Positions 19,487-64,000 of a DNA stretch of 64,000 bases are shown piece after piece (position 1 is the first letter of the stretch; every line of letters begins with the position of its first letter). Location of the stretch: the NCBI GenBank assembly GCA_031416075.1, contig JANOSY010000031.1, forward strand, positions 19,138 to 83,137, in the 5' to 3' direction. The translations under genes and the position numbers were made by a program. Under the pieces are notes generated by a model that saw only the letters and a list, made by a program, of their open reading frames with translations, had not been told where the DNA came from and did not search any database. The DNA is from Candidatus Tenderia sp. GTDB taxonomy: Bacteria > Pseudomonadota > Gammaproteobacteria > Tenderiales > Tenderiaceae.

Positions 19487-20401
19487 TCACCGTAAACATC
19501 CCGCCAGATTTTGCGCCAAGCCACGCATCAGCTTGAAATAGAGATCCGGCCCCGGTTGTAAGCCGCTGCCAATACCATCCAGTACACCGCTTTTTATCCC
19601 AGTGCCAGCCGTCACCAGCTGTACAGCGGCGGCAGAGTATTGCGGCTCACTAAAGATACAGCGCACCTGCTGCTGTTTGACCATGGTACTGATTTCGCTC
19701 AACCGTTTAGCACCCGGTTTATGCTCCGCATCAACACTAATCGCGCCAGCGGCACGCAGTTTGAAACGATCTTCAAAGTAGTGGTAGCCGTCATGAAATA
19801 CCAGATAAGGAACAGTACGTACCGGCGTTAGGGTGGCATCAATCTCTCGGGTGAGTTCATCGAGCTGCTGTAATAGTACTGTACTGTTACGGCGATACTG
19901 CACCGTGTGGCCGGGATCAATCTCACTCAGCCTTGCTGCCACCGCTGTCACAATGACCTTGGCATTAGTGGTATCCAGCCAGAGATGGCCATCCATCTCC
20001 CCTGCCCCGTGATCATGCAGTGAATGCTCATGCGCCTGCCAGAATCCACCACTGCGACTGGGTAGCAGCGCCATACCCGGCAGTGTCACCAGCTTGATCA
20101 CCCGTTGGTCGCTGTTGATAGAGCGCAAGGTACGAGGCATAAAGCTCTCCACACTCTCGCCATTCCAGACAATCAGGTCAGCACGTTGCAACGCCTTGAT
20201 CTGGGATGGTTTGAGCATGTAACTGTGGGGCGATGCTGCGCCGCTGATCAGCAGCTCCGGCGTTGTGACCCCCGCCATCACAGCGGCGACCAGTGAATGT
20301 ATCGGGGCGATGCTCACCACCACTCGCGGACCTTCGGCAGCCTGCAGTGGCAACACTACCAGCAGCGTTAACACACCTATAATAGAGAGACGACAAAACA
20401 T
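19487..20401 (-). CDS. znuA: Zinc ABC transporter substrate-binding protein ZnuA
   Basis: 304 aa. Signal peptide and the His/acidic loop HEHSLHDHGAGEMDGH characteristic of ZnuA. Divergent from zur-znuCB. Confidence 0.9.
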   Translation of the reverse strand: MFCRLSIIGVLTLLVVLPLQAAEGPRVVVSIAPIHSLVAAVMAGVTTPELLISGAASPHSYMLKPSQIKALQRADLIVWNGESVESFMPRTLRSINSDQRVIKLVTLPGMALLPSRSGGFWQAHEHSLHDHGAGEMDGHLWLDTTNAKVIVTAVAARLSEIDPGHTVQYRRNSTVLLQQLDELTREIDATLTPVRTVPYLVFHDGYHYFEDRFKLRAAGAISVDAEHKPGAKRLSEISTMVKQQQVRCIFSEPQYSAAAVQLVTAGTGIKSGVLDGIGSGLQPGPDLYFKLMRGLAQNLAGCLR

Positions 20402-36106: not shown

Positions 36107-37205
36107 TTAGAGGCCGCTTTTCAAGCTGGCTTCAATAAATTGGTCCAGGTCGCCATCCAGTACCGCCTGGGTATTGCCGGTCTCAACGCCGGTACGCAGA
36201 TCTTTGATGCGCGACTGGTCAAGTACGTAAGAACGAATCTGGCTGCCCCAGCCAATGTCGGACTTGGTCGCCTCTAGCGCCTGCTGCTCGGTGCGACGTT
36301 TCTGCATCTCCAGCTCATAGAGTTTGGCCTTGAGCTGCTTCATGGCGGTATCTTTATTTTTGTGCTGTGAACGGTCGCTCTGACACTGCACCACGGCATT
36401 GGTAGGCAGATGGGTAATACGCACCGCCGATTCGGTACGGTTGACGTGCTGACCACCGGCGCCACTGGCGCGGTAGACGTCGATGCGCAGATCGGCGGGG
36501 TTGATCTCGATGTTGATATCGTCATCCACTTCAGGCGAAACAAACACCGAAGCAAACGAGGTGTGACGACGATTGCCTGAGTCGAACGGTGATTTGCGTA
36601 CCAGGCGATGTACGCCGGTCTCGGTGCGCAGCCAGCCGTAGGCGTATTCACCTTCAAAACGGATGGTGGCGCTTTTGATGCCTGCTACTTCGCCGTCGGA
36701 GACTTCGATCAGCTCGGTCTTGAAACCACTGCGTTCGCCCCAGCGCAGAAACATGCGCATCAACATGCTGGCCCAATCCTGCGCCTCGGTGCCACCGGAA
36801 CCGGCCTGCACGTCGAGAAAGGCGTTGTTGGGGTCCATTTCGCCGGAGAACATACGACGGAATTCGAGGGTGGCGAGACGTTTCTCCAGCTCGTCCAGAT
36901 CTTTGACCACGGAGGCGACGGTCTCCTCGTCTCCCTCCTCACCCGCCATCTCCAGCAGCTCGGTGGCATCGGTCAAGGTGGCTTCCAGGTCGGTGATGGT
37001 TTTGACTACCTGCTCCAGCTGCACCCGTTCTTTGCCCAGCGCCTGGGCGCGTTCCGGGTTATCCCAAACATTGGGCTGCTCCAGCTCACGCTCGACTTCG
37101 GTCAGACGCTCCTGTTTGATCTCAAAGTCAAAGGTACCCCCTAAGAGCGGCAGTGCGCTCTGCCATCTCTTTGATTCTACGAACGATGAGATTGATTTCT
37201 AACAT
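36107..37205 (-). CDS. prfB: Peptide chain release factor 2 (programmed +1 frameshift at CTT TGA C, 37127-37133)
   Basis: Frame 0 reads [25 protein letters not shown] then TGA, preceded by the SD-like AGGGGG. The +1 frame continues [22 protein letters not shown]... into the 305-aa ORF carrying SPF and GGQ motifs. Total 365 aa. Confidence 0.95.
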
Positions 37206-55338: not shown

Positions 55339-56661
<1,323 letters not shown>

Positions 56662-56706
56662 CTAAGTACAACACTGGGCGCTGACATGCACCAACACCCC
56701 AATTTT

Positions 56707-57539
56707 TTATTGATTTTGTTCGATAAAGCCGCTCGACTTCACCGTCATATCTAACTGCTTCAACGTCTGCAACAGCGCCTCCATCTGACCCAACGGCCAG
56801 GCATTAGGGCCATCGCTCAGCGCTTTATCGGGATCAGGGTGGGTTTCCATGAACAGGCCGGAAATCCCCGCCGCCACCGCCGCCCTTGCCAATACCGGCA
56901 CAAACTCTCGCTGCCCACCGGAGCTCTGCCCCTGACCACCGGGCTGCTGCACCGAATGGGTGGCATCAAAGACCACCGGGCAACCGGTCTCACGCATGAT
57001 CGCCAGGCCGCGAATATCCGTAATCAGCGTATTGTAACCGAAGGAGGTGCCACGATCGCAGACCATAATCTGATCGTTACCCACTTCACGGGCCTTGGCG
57101 ACGACATTGGCCATATCCCAAGGGGCCAGGAACTGCCCCTTTTTGATATTCACCGGTTTGCCCTGACGGGCAACATTCTGAATAAAGTTAGTCTGACGAC
57201 AGAGGAACGCCGGGGTTTGCAATACATCCACCACACTGGCTACCTCATCCAATGGAGTATCTTCATGGACGTCGGTCAACACCGCCACACCCAGCTCATC
57301 TTTCACCCGTTGCAGGATACGCAGCCCCTCTTCAATACCGGGACCCCGAAAGCTCTTGCTCGACGTGCGGTTGGCCTTATCAAACGAAGACTTATAGATA
57401 AAAGGGATGCCAAGACGTGAAGTCATCTCTTTCAACGCCGCCGCCGTCTCCAGCGCCAGCGCCTCACTCTCAATCACACAGGGACCGGCAATGAGGAAAA
57501 AGGGGTGATCAAGTCCTGCTTCAAACCCACATAGTTTCA

Positions 57540-57540
<1 letters not shown>
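56707..57540 (-). CDS. kdsA: 3-deoxy-8-phosphooctulonate synthase
   Basis: 277 aa. GPCVIES...[12 protein letters not shown]. Confidence 0.95.
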
Positions 57541-59243
<1,703 letters not shown>

Positions 59244-59373
59244 TCAATGCGGGAAGCCGGAATTTTTAACACTCACCCATACAAGATTGGCCAAGATCGG
59301 CCAAACCCCTCACCACCGGCAAAATTCAGGCACATATAGACACCAGCAACAGCAATCGCTAACATACGCCCCG

Positions 59374-59480
59374 TCATTGGGGAGTAGCCGCCTTTCTATA
59401 TTGAAGGGGCTGACGTCAACACACTTGGCCCTCACGGCCATGGCGTCAACAGAACATTTCCTGGCAAGACCTTTGACCAT
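59374..59480 (+). promoter_or_regulatory. yybP-ykoY (manganese) riboswitch
   Basis: Hallmark blocks TTGGGGAGTAGCCGCC ... GTCAACAC ... GGCGTCAACAGAACATTTCCTGGCAAGACCTTTGACC. The P1 halves TTGG/CCTT flank GGGGAGUAG and GCAAGACC. It lies in the 5' leader of a GDT1/UPF0016 gene. Confidence 0.75.
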
Positions 59481-59544
59481 ACCACCCTTGCATTGGCCGG
59501 GGGGGAGTATGGTCATTGGAATTAAACCGGCCAGGAGCTCTAAT

Positions 59545-60111
59545 ATGGACGCATTTTTTATATCAACAGGCATTGTCGCCCTGGCCGAAATTGGCGATAA
59601 AACCCAGCTACTGGCCTTTATGCTGGCCGCCAAATACCGCAAACCCACCCCTATCATCCTCGGCATTTTAGTCGCCACCCTCGCCAATCATGCGGCGGCT
59701 GGGGCATTAGGCGGATGGCTCAGCACGCTGTTCAGTGCCGAAGCATTACGCTGGGCACTGGGGGCATCCTTTATTGCCATGGCAATCTGGATATTAATCC
59801 CCGACAAACTCGATGATAAACAGAGCCAGCTCACTCACTTCGGTATATTTGGCACTACGCTCATCCTCTTTTTTCTGGCTGAAATGGGCGACAAAACCCA
59901 AATTGCCACCATCGCTCTGGCCGCTCAATACCAGCACATAGTAGCCGTGGTGGCAGGAACCACCCTTGGCATGATGATAGCCAACGTGCCTGCGGTCATA
60001 TTTGGTGAAAAAATAACCCGGCACATCCCACTCAACGTAGTACACGGCATCGCTGCGCTTATTTTTGCCGTGTTGGGCATTATCACCCTCATAGGGGCGA
60101 TAACCCTATAA
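59545..60111 (+). CDS. GDT1/TMEM165 (UPF0016) family cation (Mn2+/Ca2+) transporter
   Basis: Start moved to ATG 59545 (MDAFFISTG, AGGAG SD). Two E-x-G-D-K-T motifs (LAEIGDKTQ, LAEMGDKTQ). Confidence 0.85.
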   Translation: MDAFFISTGIVALAEIGDKTQLLAFMLAAKYRKPTPIILGILVATLANHAAAGALGGWLSTLFSAEALRWALGASFIAMAIWILIPDKLDDKQSQLTHFGIFGTTLILFFLAEMGDKTQIATIALAAQYQHIVAVVAGTTLGMMIANVPAVIFGEKITRHIPLNVVHGIAALIFAVLGIITLIGAITL

Positions 60112-60167
60112 AATGAGAGGCCAAACATCCGCCCCCCACTCTTACCAACCATATCCAACACATTAAA

Positions 60168-60197
60168 AGGCCCACTACTGGGGGCAGTAGCGGGCCT
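60168..60197 (-). terminator. Rho-independent terminator downstream of efp
   Basis: AGGCCCACTACTG-GGGG-CAGTAGCGGGCCT, followed by TTTTAAT on the minus strand. Confidence 0.75.
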
Positions 60198-60225
60198 CTT
60201 AACTACAACGCGGTTTTAATGAGTA

Positions 60226-60783
60226 CTATTTGGCGCGGCTGCGGTACTCATCAGTACGGGTATCAATTTCGATTTTATCGCCAATTTCAACAAAGGCGGG
60301 AACCGAAAGTTCATAGCCAGAAGGCAACTTAGCCAGTTTCATCACCTTGCCAGAGGTATCCCCTTTGGCAGCGGGTTCTGTGTAGATAACTTCACGAACC
60401 AGGGTGGTTGGCAGGTTAACGGAGATCGCCTTACCGTTATAGAAGACCACTTCACACGGCATTCCATCTTCGAGGTACTTCAGCGCGTCTTCGACGTTTT
60501 CAGCTTCAATTTCATACTGTTCGTAATCGCCATCCATAAAGACATACATCGGATCGGCAAAATAGGAGTAGGTAACCTCTTTGGCATCCAGGATTACCTG
60601 TTCAAACTTATCATCAGCACGGTAAACAGTCTCCATCGCCGCACCGTTGAGCAGATTTTTCATCTTCATCTTCACAACGGCAGAGTTACGACCGGACTTA
60701 TTAAAATCAGCCTTCAGCACCACCATCGGATCGTTACCGACCATAATTACCTGACCTGCACGCACTTCCTGAGCAACTTTCAT
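60226..60783 (-). CDS. efp: Elongation factor P, Arg32 (EarP/rhamnosylation) type
   Basis: [12 protein letters not shown]...[22 protein letters not shown] closely follows the Pseudomonas-type EF-P. The loop tip is R32 rather than K34. The second ATG is used as the start. Confidence 0.9.
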
Positions 60784-60825
60784 CATGGGAGCATCAACCT
60801 TGGCTAATAAAAAAAGAGAGGGAGA

Positions 60826-61160
60826 TTATAAATATTTTTCACAAAAATGCACTAAATTCGTCATCATGCCCCCCAAATCACCCAGTCCATCGACCTGTTT
60901 CTCACCATAATTCAGCCAACTGCTCGCACCAAACCACAAAGGGCAACCACCACCCAGCCACTCTTCCCTCTGGCGGAAAACCTTCCCTATCAGGGATCTA
61001 CCGGCCCACTGGGCGCAAACAAGGAGTCTTCCCCGCTCACAAAATTGAGGCCACGCACCCACAGCAACCGGTCATAACCATCCTGCTCCAGGAATGGGCA
61101 GATGCACCGTCAAACCACCTTAGGGAAGCGCTGAATACCCACTCCGTTTATAGTGGATTT
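60826..61160 (-). pseudogene. earP: Remnant of the EF-P arginine rhamnosyltransferase gene earP (C-terminal third, multiple frameshifts and stops)
   Basis: Three frames read in turn GGLTVHLP / PFLEQDGYDRLLWVRGLNFVSGEDSLF / LVCAQWAGRS. Together these track the remembered EarP segment G.LT.HVLPF.PQD.YDRLLW..D.N.VRGEDSFVRAQWAG. Only about 0.5 kb of space exists for a gene that is normally about 1.1 kb. Confidence 0.5.
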
Positions 61161-61286
61161 GTCGAGCCATGGCCAGAGAGGATATTCAGAGACTCACTTA
61201 GAGCTATGTACGTTAAGAGTTCAGGTTAAAATCCTCTGCCAGTCCAAAGCAACAACCCATTGGGTTTTTTTGCAATGAGCGCAGAA

Positions 61287-63554
61287 CTATTTTAATAACA
61301 TCTCTACTGCACCACGCCACGCAACAGGTGGTGTCTGCACATAACGCTGACAGAGTTTTAGATAAAAAGCACTGGGGCCATCCTCTGGGTAACGCATGGC
61401 CAGGCGTTGGAACATAATTAGTGACTCATTCCATGCCTGTGAAAAAAACAGCGCTTGTGCCAGTTCAAAGTCAGCGCATAAAACCTGCTCTGCCATTGAG
61501 TGTTGACTGGTATAACCCAGCAGCTCATGAAGGGTGACGGCCTGCTCTTTACCTACCAATATAAAACACCCCAATTTTCGCGTGACTATTCCCATTACGT
61601 TTTGCAGCACCTCTTCCGAGGCGATGACGTTAGTACCGAGCTGTTTATTCAACCCCTGAATACGTGACGCAGTATTAACGATATCACCCACTGCACGATA
61701 TTCGTAGTGGTCCAACGCGCCGATGTTTCCAATCATCATCTCCCCGGCATGAAGACCTATACGTGTATGCAATACCCTGTTTTGCTGCTGACTGAATTTA
61801 ACCGCAGCAGCAGCAATATCAAGCGCGGCTTCACACGCCTGTTGCCGCAACTGTGGCTCTGGCTGTGGTGAGGACCAGAGCGCTAACATTGCATCACCGA
61901 TAACATCGGAGACGATGCCGTGATGAGCGCGCACCGGTGCAAAGAGTACTTCGTAGTAGGCGTTCATCAAATCACTTAATACGTGGGGGGCAAGCCTTTC
62001 TGCCAGATGGGTATAACGCTCTGCATCCGTTGCCAGGCAGATGCCGTACATTAACTGGCCGGTGGCTGTGATGGGGGTGGCGTTGTCTGCAAAATGGTCA
62101 GCTACATTGCGTGGTACATAGTGGCTGAATGCCTGATGTATCTGTTGCTGGCTGCGATGCACATCACCATAACGACAGAGCAGTGAGACGACTAATGCAA
62201 TCGGTGTTTGAATAAACAGCGGGACCACCCAGGGCAGCCATATATTGGCCACATTAAACAGGATCGAGGCTGTCATCAGGTAGAGTCCCGCGATAGTAAC
62301 GCTGCCAATCACTATCAACAGGGATGACGGTAACCGCCCAACCCCTGCAATAAAAAACCCATACGCCGCTATTGATAACATAAAAACGGTTGCTGTCAGG
62401 GGTTGAAGGGTTGTCTCTTCCAGAACATTGGCAAATGTGGTGGCGGCAATCTCCACACCACTTACATCGACACCGTTTGGTTGGGAGTAGACGGTAAAAA
62501 ACCCATCTTTCTGTTCAGGCTGGCGATTTTCTGCGAAGCCTACAAACACTGCTTTGCCTCTGAACCGGGCAAGTGTCTCAGCATCTCCCCTCAATACATC
62601 GGCATACTCTATGGTAGGTATGGTGTGGGGGGGGCCATACAGATTTAAATAAGGTCTATTTTCCCCAGTATATGTAGTCAGTAGCGCTTCGACCTGCTTC
62701 TTATTTGCATCGCCGGATAACGCTGACTGAGAGATGTTCTGTTTTATTTTTCTCAAAAGCACGGGATGTGTAAGCAGCATTTCACGCGCATCGGGGTTAA
62801 AACTGGTGGCGTCTTCATTCACTATCTTTTTTTCCAGTAACTGCTGCATTAATGCAGCATCATCACCCGCCAGCTGCCGTAACCACTGCCTGACGGCTGG
62901 TGCGGTATAACGCTCCAGCGCCACAACGGGCAGTGTTGCAACATCGCCGGCAGAGGTATGAAAACTCCAGAACTGACTAACACGTATGGGGACCTTGGGT
63001 AAAACAAAAGGCGCGACACCACTGGCCGCCTCTGCAAGTGCGGGAAAAGGCAGCACCAGCTGCTCCACATAGATATCACTGCTGCTGTTGTCCGTAATTT
63101 CACGTTTAAGATAGGCAAACAACAGTACGTTTCCGGCCCGCCGGGTGGCGTCCACCAGCAGCTGATCTGTTTTCGGATCCCGTGGTTCTTTAAAAAAAAC
63201 ATCAAATGCCACCACAGTGGCCCCTGCCTCGGCCAGCTGGTCTATAATCTGTGCATGCATCTCCCGTGGCCACTGGGCTGGATCATTGATCAATCCCAAA
63301 CGATCAGCAGAGCCTTTGTCTATAGACACAAGCACAACATCAGCCGGGGGCACACGATGGCCACGCAGTGTATATAGGGTTTCCAGGCCGATGTTTTCTT
63401 CCCAATCCAGTCCAAAAGGTAGAAAATAGCTCAACAGGCCAATGGCCGCTGTGGATAGACCTAACAGCAGTACCTTGTTAAGCGCTACTGTTCTGCTAAA
63501 ACGACGGCGTTGATCAGGCATTAAAGGTATGGCTCTTATGAGTATGCAATCCAA
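61287..63554 (-). CDS. CHASE2 sensor domain - class III adenylate/guanylate cyclase
   Basis: 755 aa (the start may be ATG 63521). Periplasmic CHASE2-like region, TM bundle, then a cyclase domain (ATDAERYT...GDAMLALW...RIGLHAGEMMIGNIG) and a TPR-like tail. Confidence 0.8.
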   Translation of the reverse strand: MDCILIRAIPLMPDQRRRFSRTVALNKVLLLGLSTAAIGLLSYFLPFGLDWEENIGLETLYTLRGHRVPPADVVLVSIDKGSADRLGLINDPAQWPREMHAQIIDQLAEAGATVVAFDVFFKEPRDPKTDQLLVDATRRAGNVLLFAYLKREITDNSSSDIYVEQLVLPFPALAEAASGVAPFVLPKVPIRVSQFWSFHTSAGDVATLPVVALERYTAPAVRQWLRQLAGDDAALMQQLLEKKIVNEDATSFNPDAREMLLTHPVLLRKIKQNISQSALSGDANKKQVEALLTTYTGENRPYLNLYGPPHTIPTIEYADVLRGDAETLARFRGKAVFVGFAENRQPEQKDGFFTVYSQPNGVDVSGVEIAATTFANVLEETTLQPLTATVFMLSIAAYGFFIAGVGRLPSSLLIVIGSVTIAGLYLMTASILFNVANIWLPWVVPLFIQTPIALVVSLLCRYGDVHRSQQQIHQAFSHYVPRNVADHFADNATPITATGQLMYGICLATDAERYTHLAERLAPHVLSDLMNAYYEVLFAPVRAHHGIVSDVIGDAMLALWSSPQPEPQLRQQACEAALDIAAAAVKFSQQQNRVLHTRIGLHAGEMMIGNIGALDHYEYRAVGDIVNTASRIQGLNKQLGTNVIASEEVLQNVMGIVTRKLGCFILVGKEQAVTLHELLGYTSQHSMAEQVLCADFELAQALFFSQAWNESLIMFQRLAMRYPEDGPSAFYLKLCQRYVQTPPVAWRGAVEMLLK

Positions 63555-63709: not shown

Positions 63710-64000
63710 ATGCACCACAATATTTCTGATGATTTATCTGCCACATTAAAACGTGTGCCACTGTTTGCGGCCCTGGATGATGATGAGCTGGAGGCTGTTC
63801 GCCCCCATATTGTGACGCGAAGTTATGCCAAAAACAGTGTCTTGATCACTGAGGGTGATGTCACGGACTCGCTCTATATCATTTTAAAAGGCAAAGTCAA
63901 AGTCTACCTGAGCGATGACCGCGGCAGAGAGGTTATCCTGAGCCAGCAGGTACCAGGGGAATATTTTGGTGAACTGGCTCTGATTGACGACGCCGAACGC
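63710..64000 (+). CDS. Cyclic-nucleotide-binding domain protein (Crp/Fnr-like), 5' part; continues beyond window
   Basis: ATG 63710 behind an AAAGGA SD. LKRVPLFAALDDDELEAVRPHI...GEYFGELALIDD is a typical cNMP-binding domain. Divergent from the cyclase. Confidence 0.8.
   Translation, partial: MHHNISDDLSATLKRVPLFAALDDDELEAVRPHIVTRSYAKNSVLITEGDVTDSLYIILKGKVKVYLSDDRGREVILSQQVPGEYFGELALIDDAER

Follow-up and report, generated by a model that had tools for sequence, protein, structure and literature searches.

The EF-P system described here is closest to the EarP/Arg32 system known from Pseudomonas putida, P. aeruginosa, Shewanella oneidensis and Neisseria meningitidis, with which it shares the KSGRN loop of EF-P, the EarP family, the Asp/Asp/Glu residues of EarP and the rmlBDAC genes. 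In P. putida EarP, residues D13, D17 and E273 are invariant and their Ala variants are inactive, as stated in sections of Krafczyk et al. (PMC5615199). Passages of Brewer and Wagner (PMC11388002) describe the horizontal spread of the Arg-EarP type into several gammaproteobacterial orders, where efp is flanked by earP. Naturally unmodified EF-Ps, such as the actinobacterial Lys-type protein with a proline-rich loop, are cited in the same article and in a preprint (bioRxiv 10.1101/2023.09.18.558224).

We analyzed a 64,000-nt stretch (the window) of the genome of a Candidatus Tenderia sp. (G000), in which efp is preceded by a remnant of earP. An earlier sequence-only reading of the window had asked whether EF-P is left unmodified here, an unusual state that would resemble that of the actinobacterial proteins. 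In contrast to the latter, G000 has the EarP-type loop, an intact EarP under selection and the rhamnose pathway, and nothing suggests an unmodified design. It also differs from the EarP/Arg32 system in that a working-looking earP is located apart from efp while a decayed second copy occupies the canonical position. Unlike the transferred efp genes flanked by earP in the passages of PMC11388002, earP in G000 appears to have been unlinked later, with loss of the linked copy. A term search of the main texts of PMC5615199, PMC11388002 and PMC12931083 returned no statement about an earP pseudogene or an unlinked earP. The remnant is an ordinary, redundant pseudogene that stayed behind when a known gene was relocated, and the EF-P system is of a known type.

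The earP remnant upstream of efp

The efp gene (60226..60786, minus strand) was identified from the ORF list and Pfam and encodes an elongation factor P of 186 aa, in which all three Pfam domains, EFP_N, EFP and Elong-fact-P_C, are matched. The loop between beta3 and beta4 reads KSGRN, and its Arg is residue 33 counted from the first Met or residue 32 from the second. The protein thus belongs to the Arg type, as the sequence-only reading had recognized from the loop. This gene is the sole efp or EFP_N match in the genome. Its product is 99% and 97% identical to those of two relatives of the same genus, the sister species G003 and the congener G001, respectively, and the KSGRN loop is common to the EF-Ps encoded beside earP in G001, G024, G080, G155 and G215. 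Within efp, a 41-nt segment (60533-60573) attracts many short, diverged contigs and shows a depth spike in all four metagenome runs. The segment is highly conserved among EF-Ps and common to other organisms, and the spike is not a feature of G000.

The gap between efp and the next gene upstream, estimated at about 500 bp in the sequence-only reading, measures exactly 500 bp (60787-61286). The first 39 nt on the efp side (60787..60825, minus strand) represent the original earP-efp intergenic spacer and are nearly unchanged; in the alignment of this spacer, 43/44 positions are identical to G003 and 39/44 to the spacer between the intact earP and efp of G001. The adjoining segment (60826-61119) corresponds to the last 408 nt of earP, that is, the 3′ third of the gene, shrunk to 294 nt. 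The similarity to EarP, which the sequence-only reading had claimed, is borne out by two kinds of search at levels far above chance. A PF10093 scan of the whole genome matched window positions 61020-61121 to model positions 240-273 with 27.5 bits (E 2.4e-6), where the cut-off was 25 bits and the same search matched 0/14 control genomes. In a blastn comparison with the intact earP of the same genome, window positions 61119-60971 and 60963-60821 were aligned at 79% (E 1e-31) and 78% identity (E 5e-29), respectively.

The remnant consists of two blocks on the minus strand. The proximal block (60971..61119), supported by PF10093 and blastn, corresponds to EarP residues ~261-308 and contains a 2-nt and a 1-nt deletion. 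This block covers the donor-binding region, in which the RGEDS motif reads SGEDS, so that the donor-site Arg is replaced by Ser. The distal block (60826..60963), supported by blastn and tblastn, corresponds to residues ~349-395 of the intact EarP, with the original TAA still in place as the stop, and contains a 1-nt insertion. The two blocks meet at a junction of 7 nt (60964..60970, minus strand), from which ~112 nt equivalent to EarP residues ~309-348 are gone; positions 2381-2501 of the locus carrying the intact gene (L001) are unmatched between the two blastn blocks. The three peptide pieces that the sequence-only reading had spliced together are all present on the minus strand. They lie not in three frames but in two (1, 2, 1), because the 2-nt deletion followed by the 1-nt deletion restores the frame.

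The same reading had also noted that the N-terminal two-thirds is absent and that in-frame stops lie just upstream. We found that ~257 of the 395 codons are missing from the N-terminal side and that an in-frame TAA is located directly 5′ of the first homologous codon of the remnant. The ~112-nt internal deletion and the 1-nt insertion had escaped that reading, as had the residual open frame, in which the last 78 codons (60826..61062) remain open to the original stop. Owing to the truncation, the frameshifts, the internal deletion and the TAA, the remnant lacks the complete two-domain GT-B fold with the catalytic Asp pair of the N-domain. Judged by its sequence, window 60826-61119 is an earP pseudogene and not a functional member of the family.

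Upstream of the remnant, a non-earP spacer (61120..61286, minus strand) extends to the stop codon of the cyclase gene. Its cyclase-proximal part (61197-61286) is common to G003, where it lies 3′ of the cyclase gene; the blastn match to G003 ends at 61197. For positions 61120-61196, neither a counterpart nor a further copy in the genome was found, and a zinc-homeostasis islet at the corresponding place in G003 (see below) gave no match as a source of the sequence 5′ of the remnant. The present upstream neighbor (61287..63554, minus strand) encodes an adenylate/guanylate cyclase with the Pfam domains CHASE2 and Guanylate_cyc and stands outside the EF-P system. Beside it, a divergent plus-strand ORF starting at 63710 looks by its sequence like a putative cyclic-nucleotide-binding regulator, and the two genes could form a local cNMP signalling pair.

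The unlinked earP gene and the donor pathway

The sequence-only reading had considered that a second earP might exist elsewhere, which would make the decayed copy an ordinary redundant remnant, and this is what the genome contains. A full-length match to PF10093 (positions 1-372 of 372, 491 bits, no stops) was found on another contig (C84, 18882-20006), so that efp and the intact earP sit on different contigs of G000. The Pfam-confirmed ORF (L001 1450..2637) starts with GTG and encodes 395 aa. The protein aligns with the EarP structures solved for P. aeruginosa (E 9e-110) and P. putida (5nv8, E 5e-104), and its DNYGDIG and RGEDS motifs are the same as those in 5nv8 and 6j7j. In the alignment to 5nv8, D13, D17 and E273 of P. 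putida EarP correspond to D26, D30 and E291, indicating that the catalytic residues are kept; for this assignment, a 13-residue offset of the 5nv8 chain numbering was deduced from the lists of neighboring residues in sections of PMC5615199.

Compared with its ortholog in G003, the C84 gene shows a dS of 0.12 and a dN of 0.022, with 19 differences in 395 aa. The resulting dN/dS of 0.18 indicates that the unlinked earP has been kept under purifying selection since G000 and G003 split. The differences are unevenly spread: in the C-terminal ~47 codons (L001/L005 2500-2637) 14/140 nt differ between G000 and G003, as against 1/158 in the preceding donor-binding segment. The tail of the intact earP evolves much faster than the rest of the gene.

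There is no efp next to this earP: none lies in the 240 nt that follow it on C84 in G000 or in the first 1.5 kb past the gene in G003. Contig C84 breaks off after these 240 nt, in an IS3-like repeat shared with the end of contig C66; its last 111 nt (20147-20257) are identical to the reverse complement of the C66 end (36417-36527). On the opposite strand the repeat resembles the C-terminal part of an IS3-family transposase, and it is the cause of the assembly break at this point. Upstream of the gene, 947 nt of IS debris (L001 496-1443; C84 17877-18824) is present in G000 only, without a counterpart in G003, and is single-copy. It comprises an IS6-family (DDE_Tnp_IS240) transposase gene that reads in the direction of earP and is interrupted by one in-frame stop, and then a short IS3-like fragment. 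The debris ends 7 nt before the GTG start codon of earP and displaces the promoter region used in G003 by ~950 nt.

The sequence-only reading had also proposed looking for rmlABCD. All four genes are contiguous and intact: rmlB, rmlD, rmlA and rmlC lie in this order on contig C54 (25478-28840), without stops and with scores all above the curated cut-offs (RmlC 254 bits; RmlD 358 bits; RmlA 530, cut-off 361; RmlB 507, cut-off 365). The dTDP-L-rhamnose pathway is complete in G000. As for the other modification system, no EpmA was found in G000 above the cut-off, the best match being a 522-aa ORF of the size of a lysyl-tRNA synthetase, and EpmB was not found.

Related genomes and the origin of the two copies

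Among G000 and 40 relatives, earP was found in 5/41 genomes, namely G000, three of the four other genomes of the genus and one genome from another family; it was found in none of the 12 genomes from other genera of the same family. G001 carries an intact earP followed by efp 40 nt on. In G002 (84% complete), the first ~97 codons of earP with G001-type upstream synteny are located at a contig end and efp gives no match, and in G004 (95% complete) there is no match to earP, efp or EFP_N. The missing loci of G004 are most simply explained by an assembly gap, which probably also applies to G002.

G003 resembles G000 in that its earP is unlinked. The gene shows 95.7% nucleotide identity to the C84 gene and has the same genes upstream, encoding an amino-acid kinase and a small membrane protein. 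In G003, efp is on another contig, and just ~115 nt of a recognizable earP 3′ end precedes it. Between the cyclase gene and these last 115 nt of the remnant, G003 carries the 4.8-kb zinc-homeostasis islet (L072 294-5312; contig C1 of G003, 55793-60811) with genes for two COG0523-like GTPases, a HisI-like protein, a ZIP transporter and a Fur-family regulator, of which no part was found in G000 by blastn. A further MAG record (L010), whose figures coincide with those of G003, is perhaps not an independent case. G000 and G003 differ very little in the 39-nt spacer and the final ~70 nt of the remnant, compared with 78% identity for the rest of the common remnant. This weakly suggests that the conserved remnant end and spacer may carry the expression signals of efp itself; a consensus scan of window 60100-61400 gave no sigma-70-like site on the minus strand.

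In a class-wide sample, earP was found in 8/301 genomes, G000 included. Outside G000, G003 and L010, an Arg-type efp lies directly downstream of earP on the same strand at all nine loci examined (G001, G024, G080, G141, G155, G215, G294 and two MAG records). Within this sample, an unlinked earP is an uncommon state that goes back to a single event. Among the relatives G005-G021 (L042-L060), which represent other genera of the family and class, all those with an EF-P match have the Lys type, with the loop PGKGQ and 31-35% identity to the EF-P of G000, and some of them also carry an EfpL-like paralog (loop SPSSRG). Among G000 and these relatives, the Arg-type KSGRN EF-P is confined to this genus. 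This distribution looks like a genus-level swap of the Lys-type EF-P system of the family for the Arg/EarP type. The Arg/EarP type of the genus, the Lys type of the other genera and the lack of EpmA and EpmB in G000 match the replacement pattern described in passages of PMC11388002.

Several comparisons bear on how the two earP copies of G000 arose. The dS between the unlinked C84 gene and the linked earP of G001 is 1.37 and that of efp between the same genomes is 1.27; such similar values fit genes inherited vertically in the genus. Of 295 alignable nt, the remnant shares 232 (78.6%) with the C84 copy and 209 (70.8%) with the G001 gene. In the ML tree, the remnant, the C84 gene and the G003 copy are grouped apart from G001 and the outgroups (UFBoot 83); with 294 aligned nt and three distant outgroups, two alternative placements of the remnant were not rejected by the AU test (p 0.18 each). 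The homology between unlinked and linked copies begins ~26 nt before the start codon and ends ~8 nt past the stop codon, indicating that essentially the gene alone moved.

We propose that a copy of earP arose at a second site in an ancestor shared by G000 and G003, once the G001 lineage had split off. The new site would have been downstream of the amino-acid-kinase (proB-like) gene and the small membrane-protein gene, and the copied segment would have been little more than the ORF, with ~26 nt upstream and ~8 nt downstream. Once earP existed twice, the efp-linked gene would have become dispensable; it could then have lost its N-terminal two-thirds, acquired the frameshifts and the internal deletion, and drifted to ~79% identity with the survivor. 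After the split, each species would have trimmed its linked remnant differently.

As a possible integration target at the new site, neither a tRNA nor an Rfam element was found in L001, L005, L038, L004 or L008. In G003, an element of ~92 nt lies between the membrane-protein gene and earP (L005 1288-1379) and has matches of 82-85% on three G002 contigs and one G001 contig; neither a tRNA nor an Rfam family matches it. A recombination of the two sites through this repeat finds no support, since the element occurs only once in G000 and is absent beside the remnant.

Alternative explanations and the modification of EF-P

We considered whether the remnant might be an artefact of sequencing, assembly or binning, in which an intact earP was misassembled or C84 came from another organism, given that the genome was assembled into 95 contigs from a metagenome-like source. 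The defects are too large for homopolymer slips, comprising the loss of ~257 codons, a 112-nt internal deletion and ~21% substitutions. In a second sample, one contig (X2, record 5) spans 60420-61560 with 0 differences and 0 gaps, although it is only semi-independent because this sample and the probable source sample belong to one study. Positions 61026-61700 are also covered, again gap-free, by a diverged strain of another study (X3, record 18), which has the same junction between the cyclase side and the remnant. These two records speak against sequencing errors, which the sequence-only reading had entertained as a cause of the frameshifts. The same two-locus layout is present in G003, on 244 kb contigs with housekeeping neighbors. 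C84 shares synteny with G003 for at least 2.4 kb on the upstream side, and its GC content is genome-like (0.538 vs 0.528); the contamination estimate of the genome is 0.27% and its completeness estimate 99.98%. The structure of the remnant is not an assembly error, and an artefact of any of these kinds is extremely improbable. A more serious alternative, which we nevertheless regard as rather unlikely, is that the unlinked earP is a xenolog from a related lineage that displaced the native efp-linked gene. The IS-rich surroundings of the copy in G000 and the 21% difference between the remnant and the unlinked copy could be taken in this sense, and the AU test leaves room for grouping the remnant with the G001-type linked gene. 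Against it, both identity and the ML tree link the remnant more closely with the unlinked copies than with the G001 gene, the dS of earP relative to G001 is close to that of efp as expected under vertical descent, no IS flanks the unlinked gene in G003, and the nearest earP found outside the genus is only 47-59% identical at the protein level. We consider it highly probable that the remnant is what is left of an earP originally located directly upstream of efp and that EF-P would be modified by the EarP encoded on C84, and we favor an intragenomic origin of the second copy.

The remaining alternative concerns the product rather than the genes: with the linked earP dead and the relocated one cut off from its promoter, and hence silent or weak, EF-P might be unmodified, under-modified or differently modified. 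The IS6/IS3 debris next to the earP start codon, found in G000 only, is in line with such a silencing, and a consensus scan revealed no sigma-70-like site upstream of the gene. Among the listed sequencing runs that contain the earP locus, none is recorded as RNA. However, the transposase pseudogene is co-directional with earP, so that read-through or an outward promoter is possible. The C84 ORF is intact with all catalytic residues, rmlBDAC is intact, and there is no other EF-P or modification system to compensate. The dN/dS of 0.18 against G003 also argues for a gene in use, though this value is time-averaged and a very recent silencing would not register in it. Given the intact, selected earP and the complete rmlBDAC operon, the suggestion that EF-P is left unmodified finds no support, and a lack or change of the modification appears very improbable. 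That the relocated earP would be silent or poorly expressed, leaving the Arg-type EF-P of a free-living bacterium largely unrhamnosylated, we judge to be slightly less probable still.

According to the reading we favor, the C84 EarP would rhamnosylate the loop Arg of the single EF-P with dTDP-rhamnose supplied by rmlBDAC on C54, in the manner known from Pseudomonas, Shewanella and Neisseria. From gene content, conserved residues and selection, EF-P is very likely modified as usual, and we infer that the intact earP is probably expressed and that EF-P would carry the rhamnose. If earP should turn out to be silent, this bacterium would show, as an experiment of nature, how far an Arg-type EF-P depends on its sugar, bearing on the dispensability of rhamnosylation.

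A decayed earP beside efp need not mean that EF-P is unmodified, and a search of the whole genome is needed before such a claim is made. The locus represents a rare case of earP-efp unlinking, apparently by copying and decay, in a genus that seems already to have swapped the Lys/EpmAB type for the Arg/EarP type. This unlinking separates the regulation of the modifier from that of its substrate.
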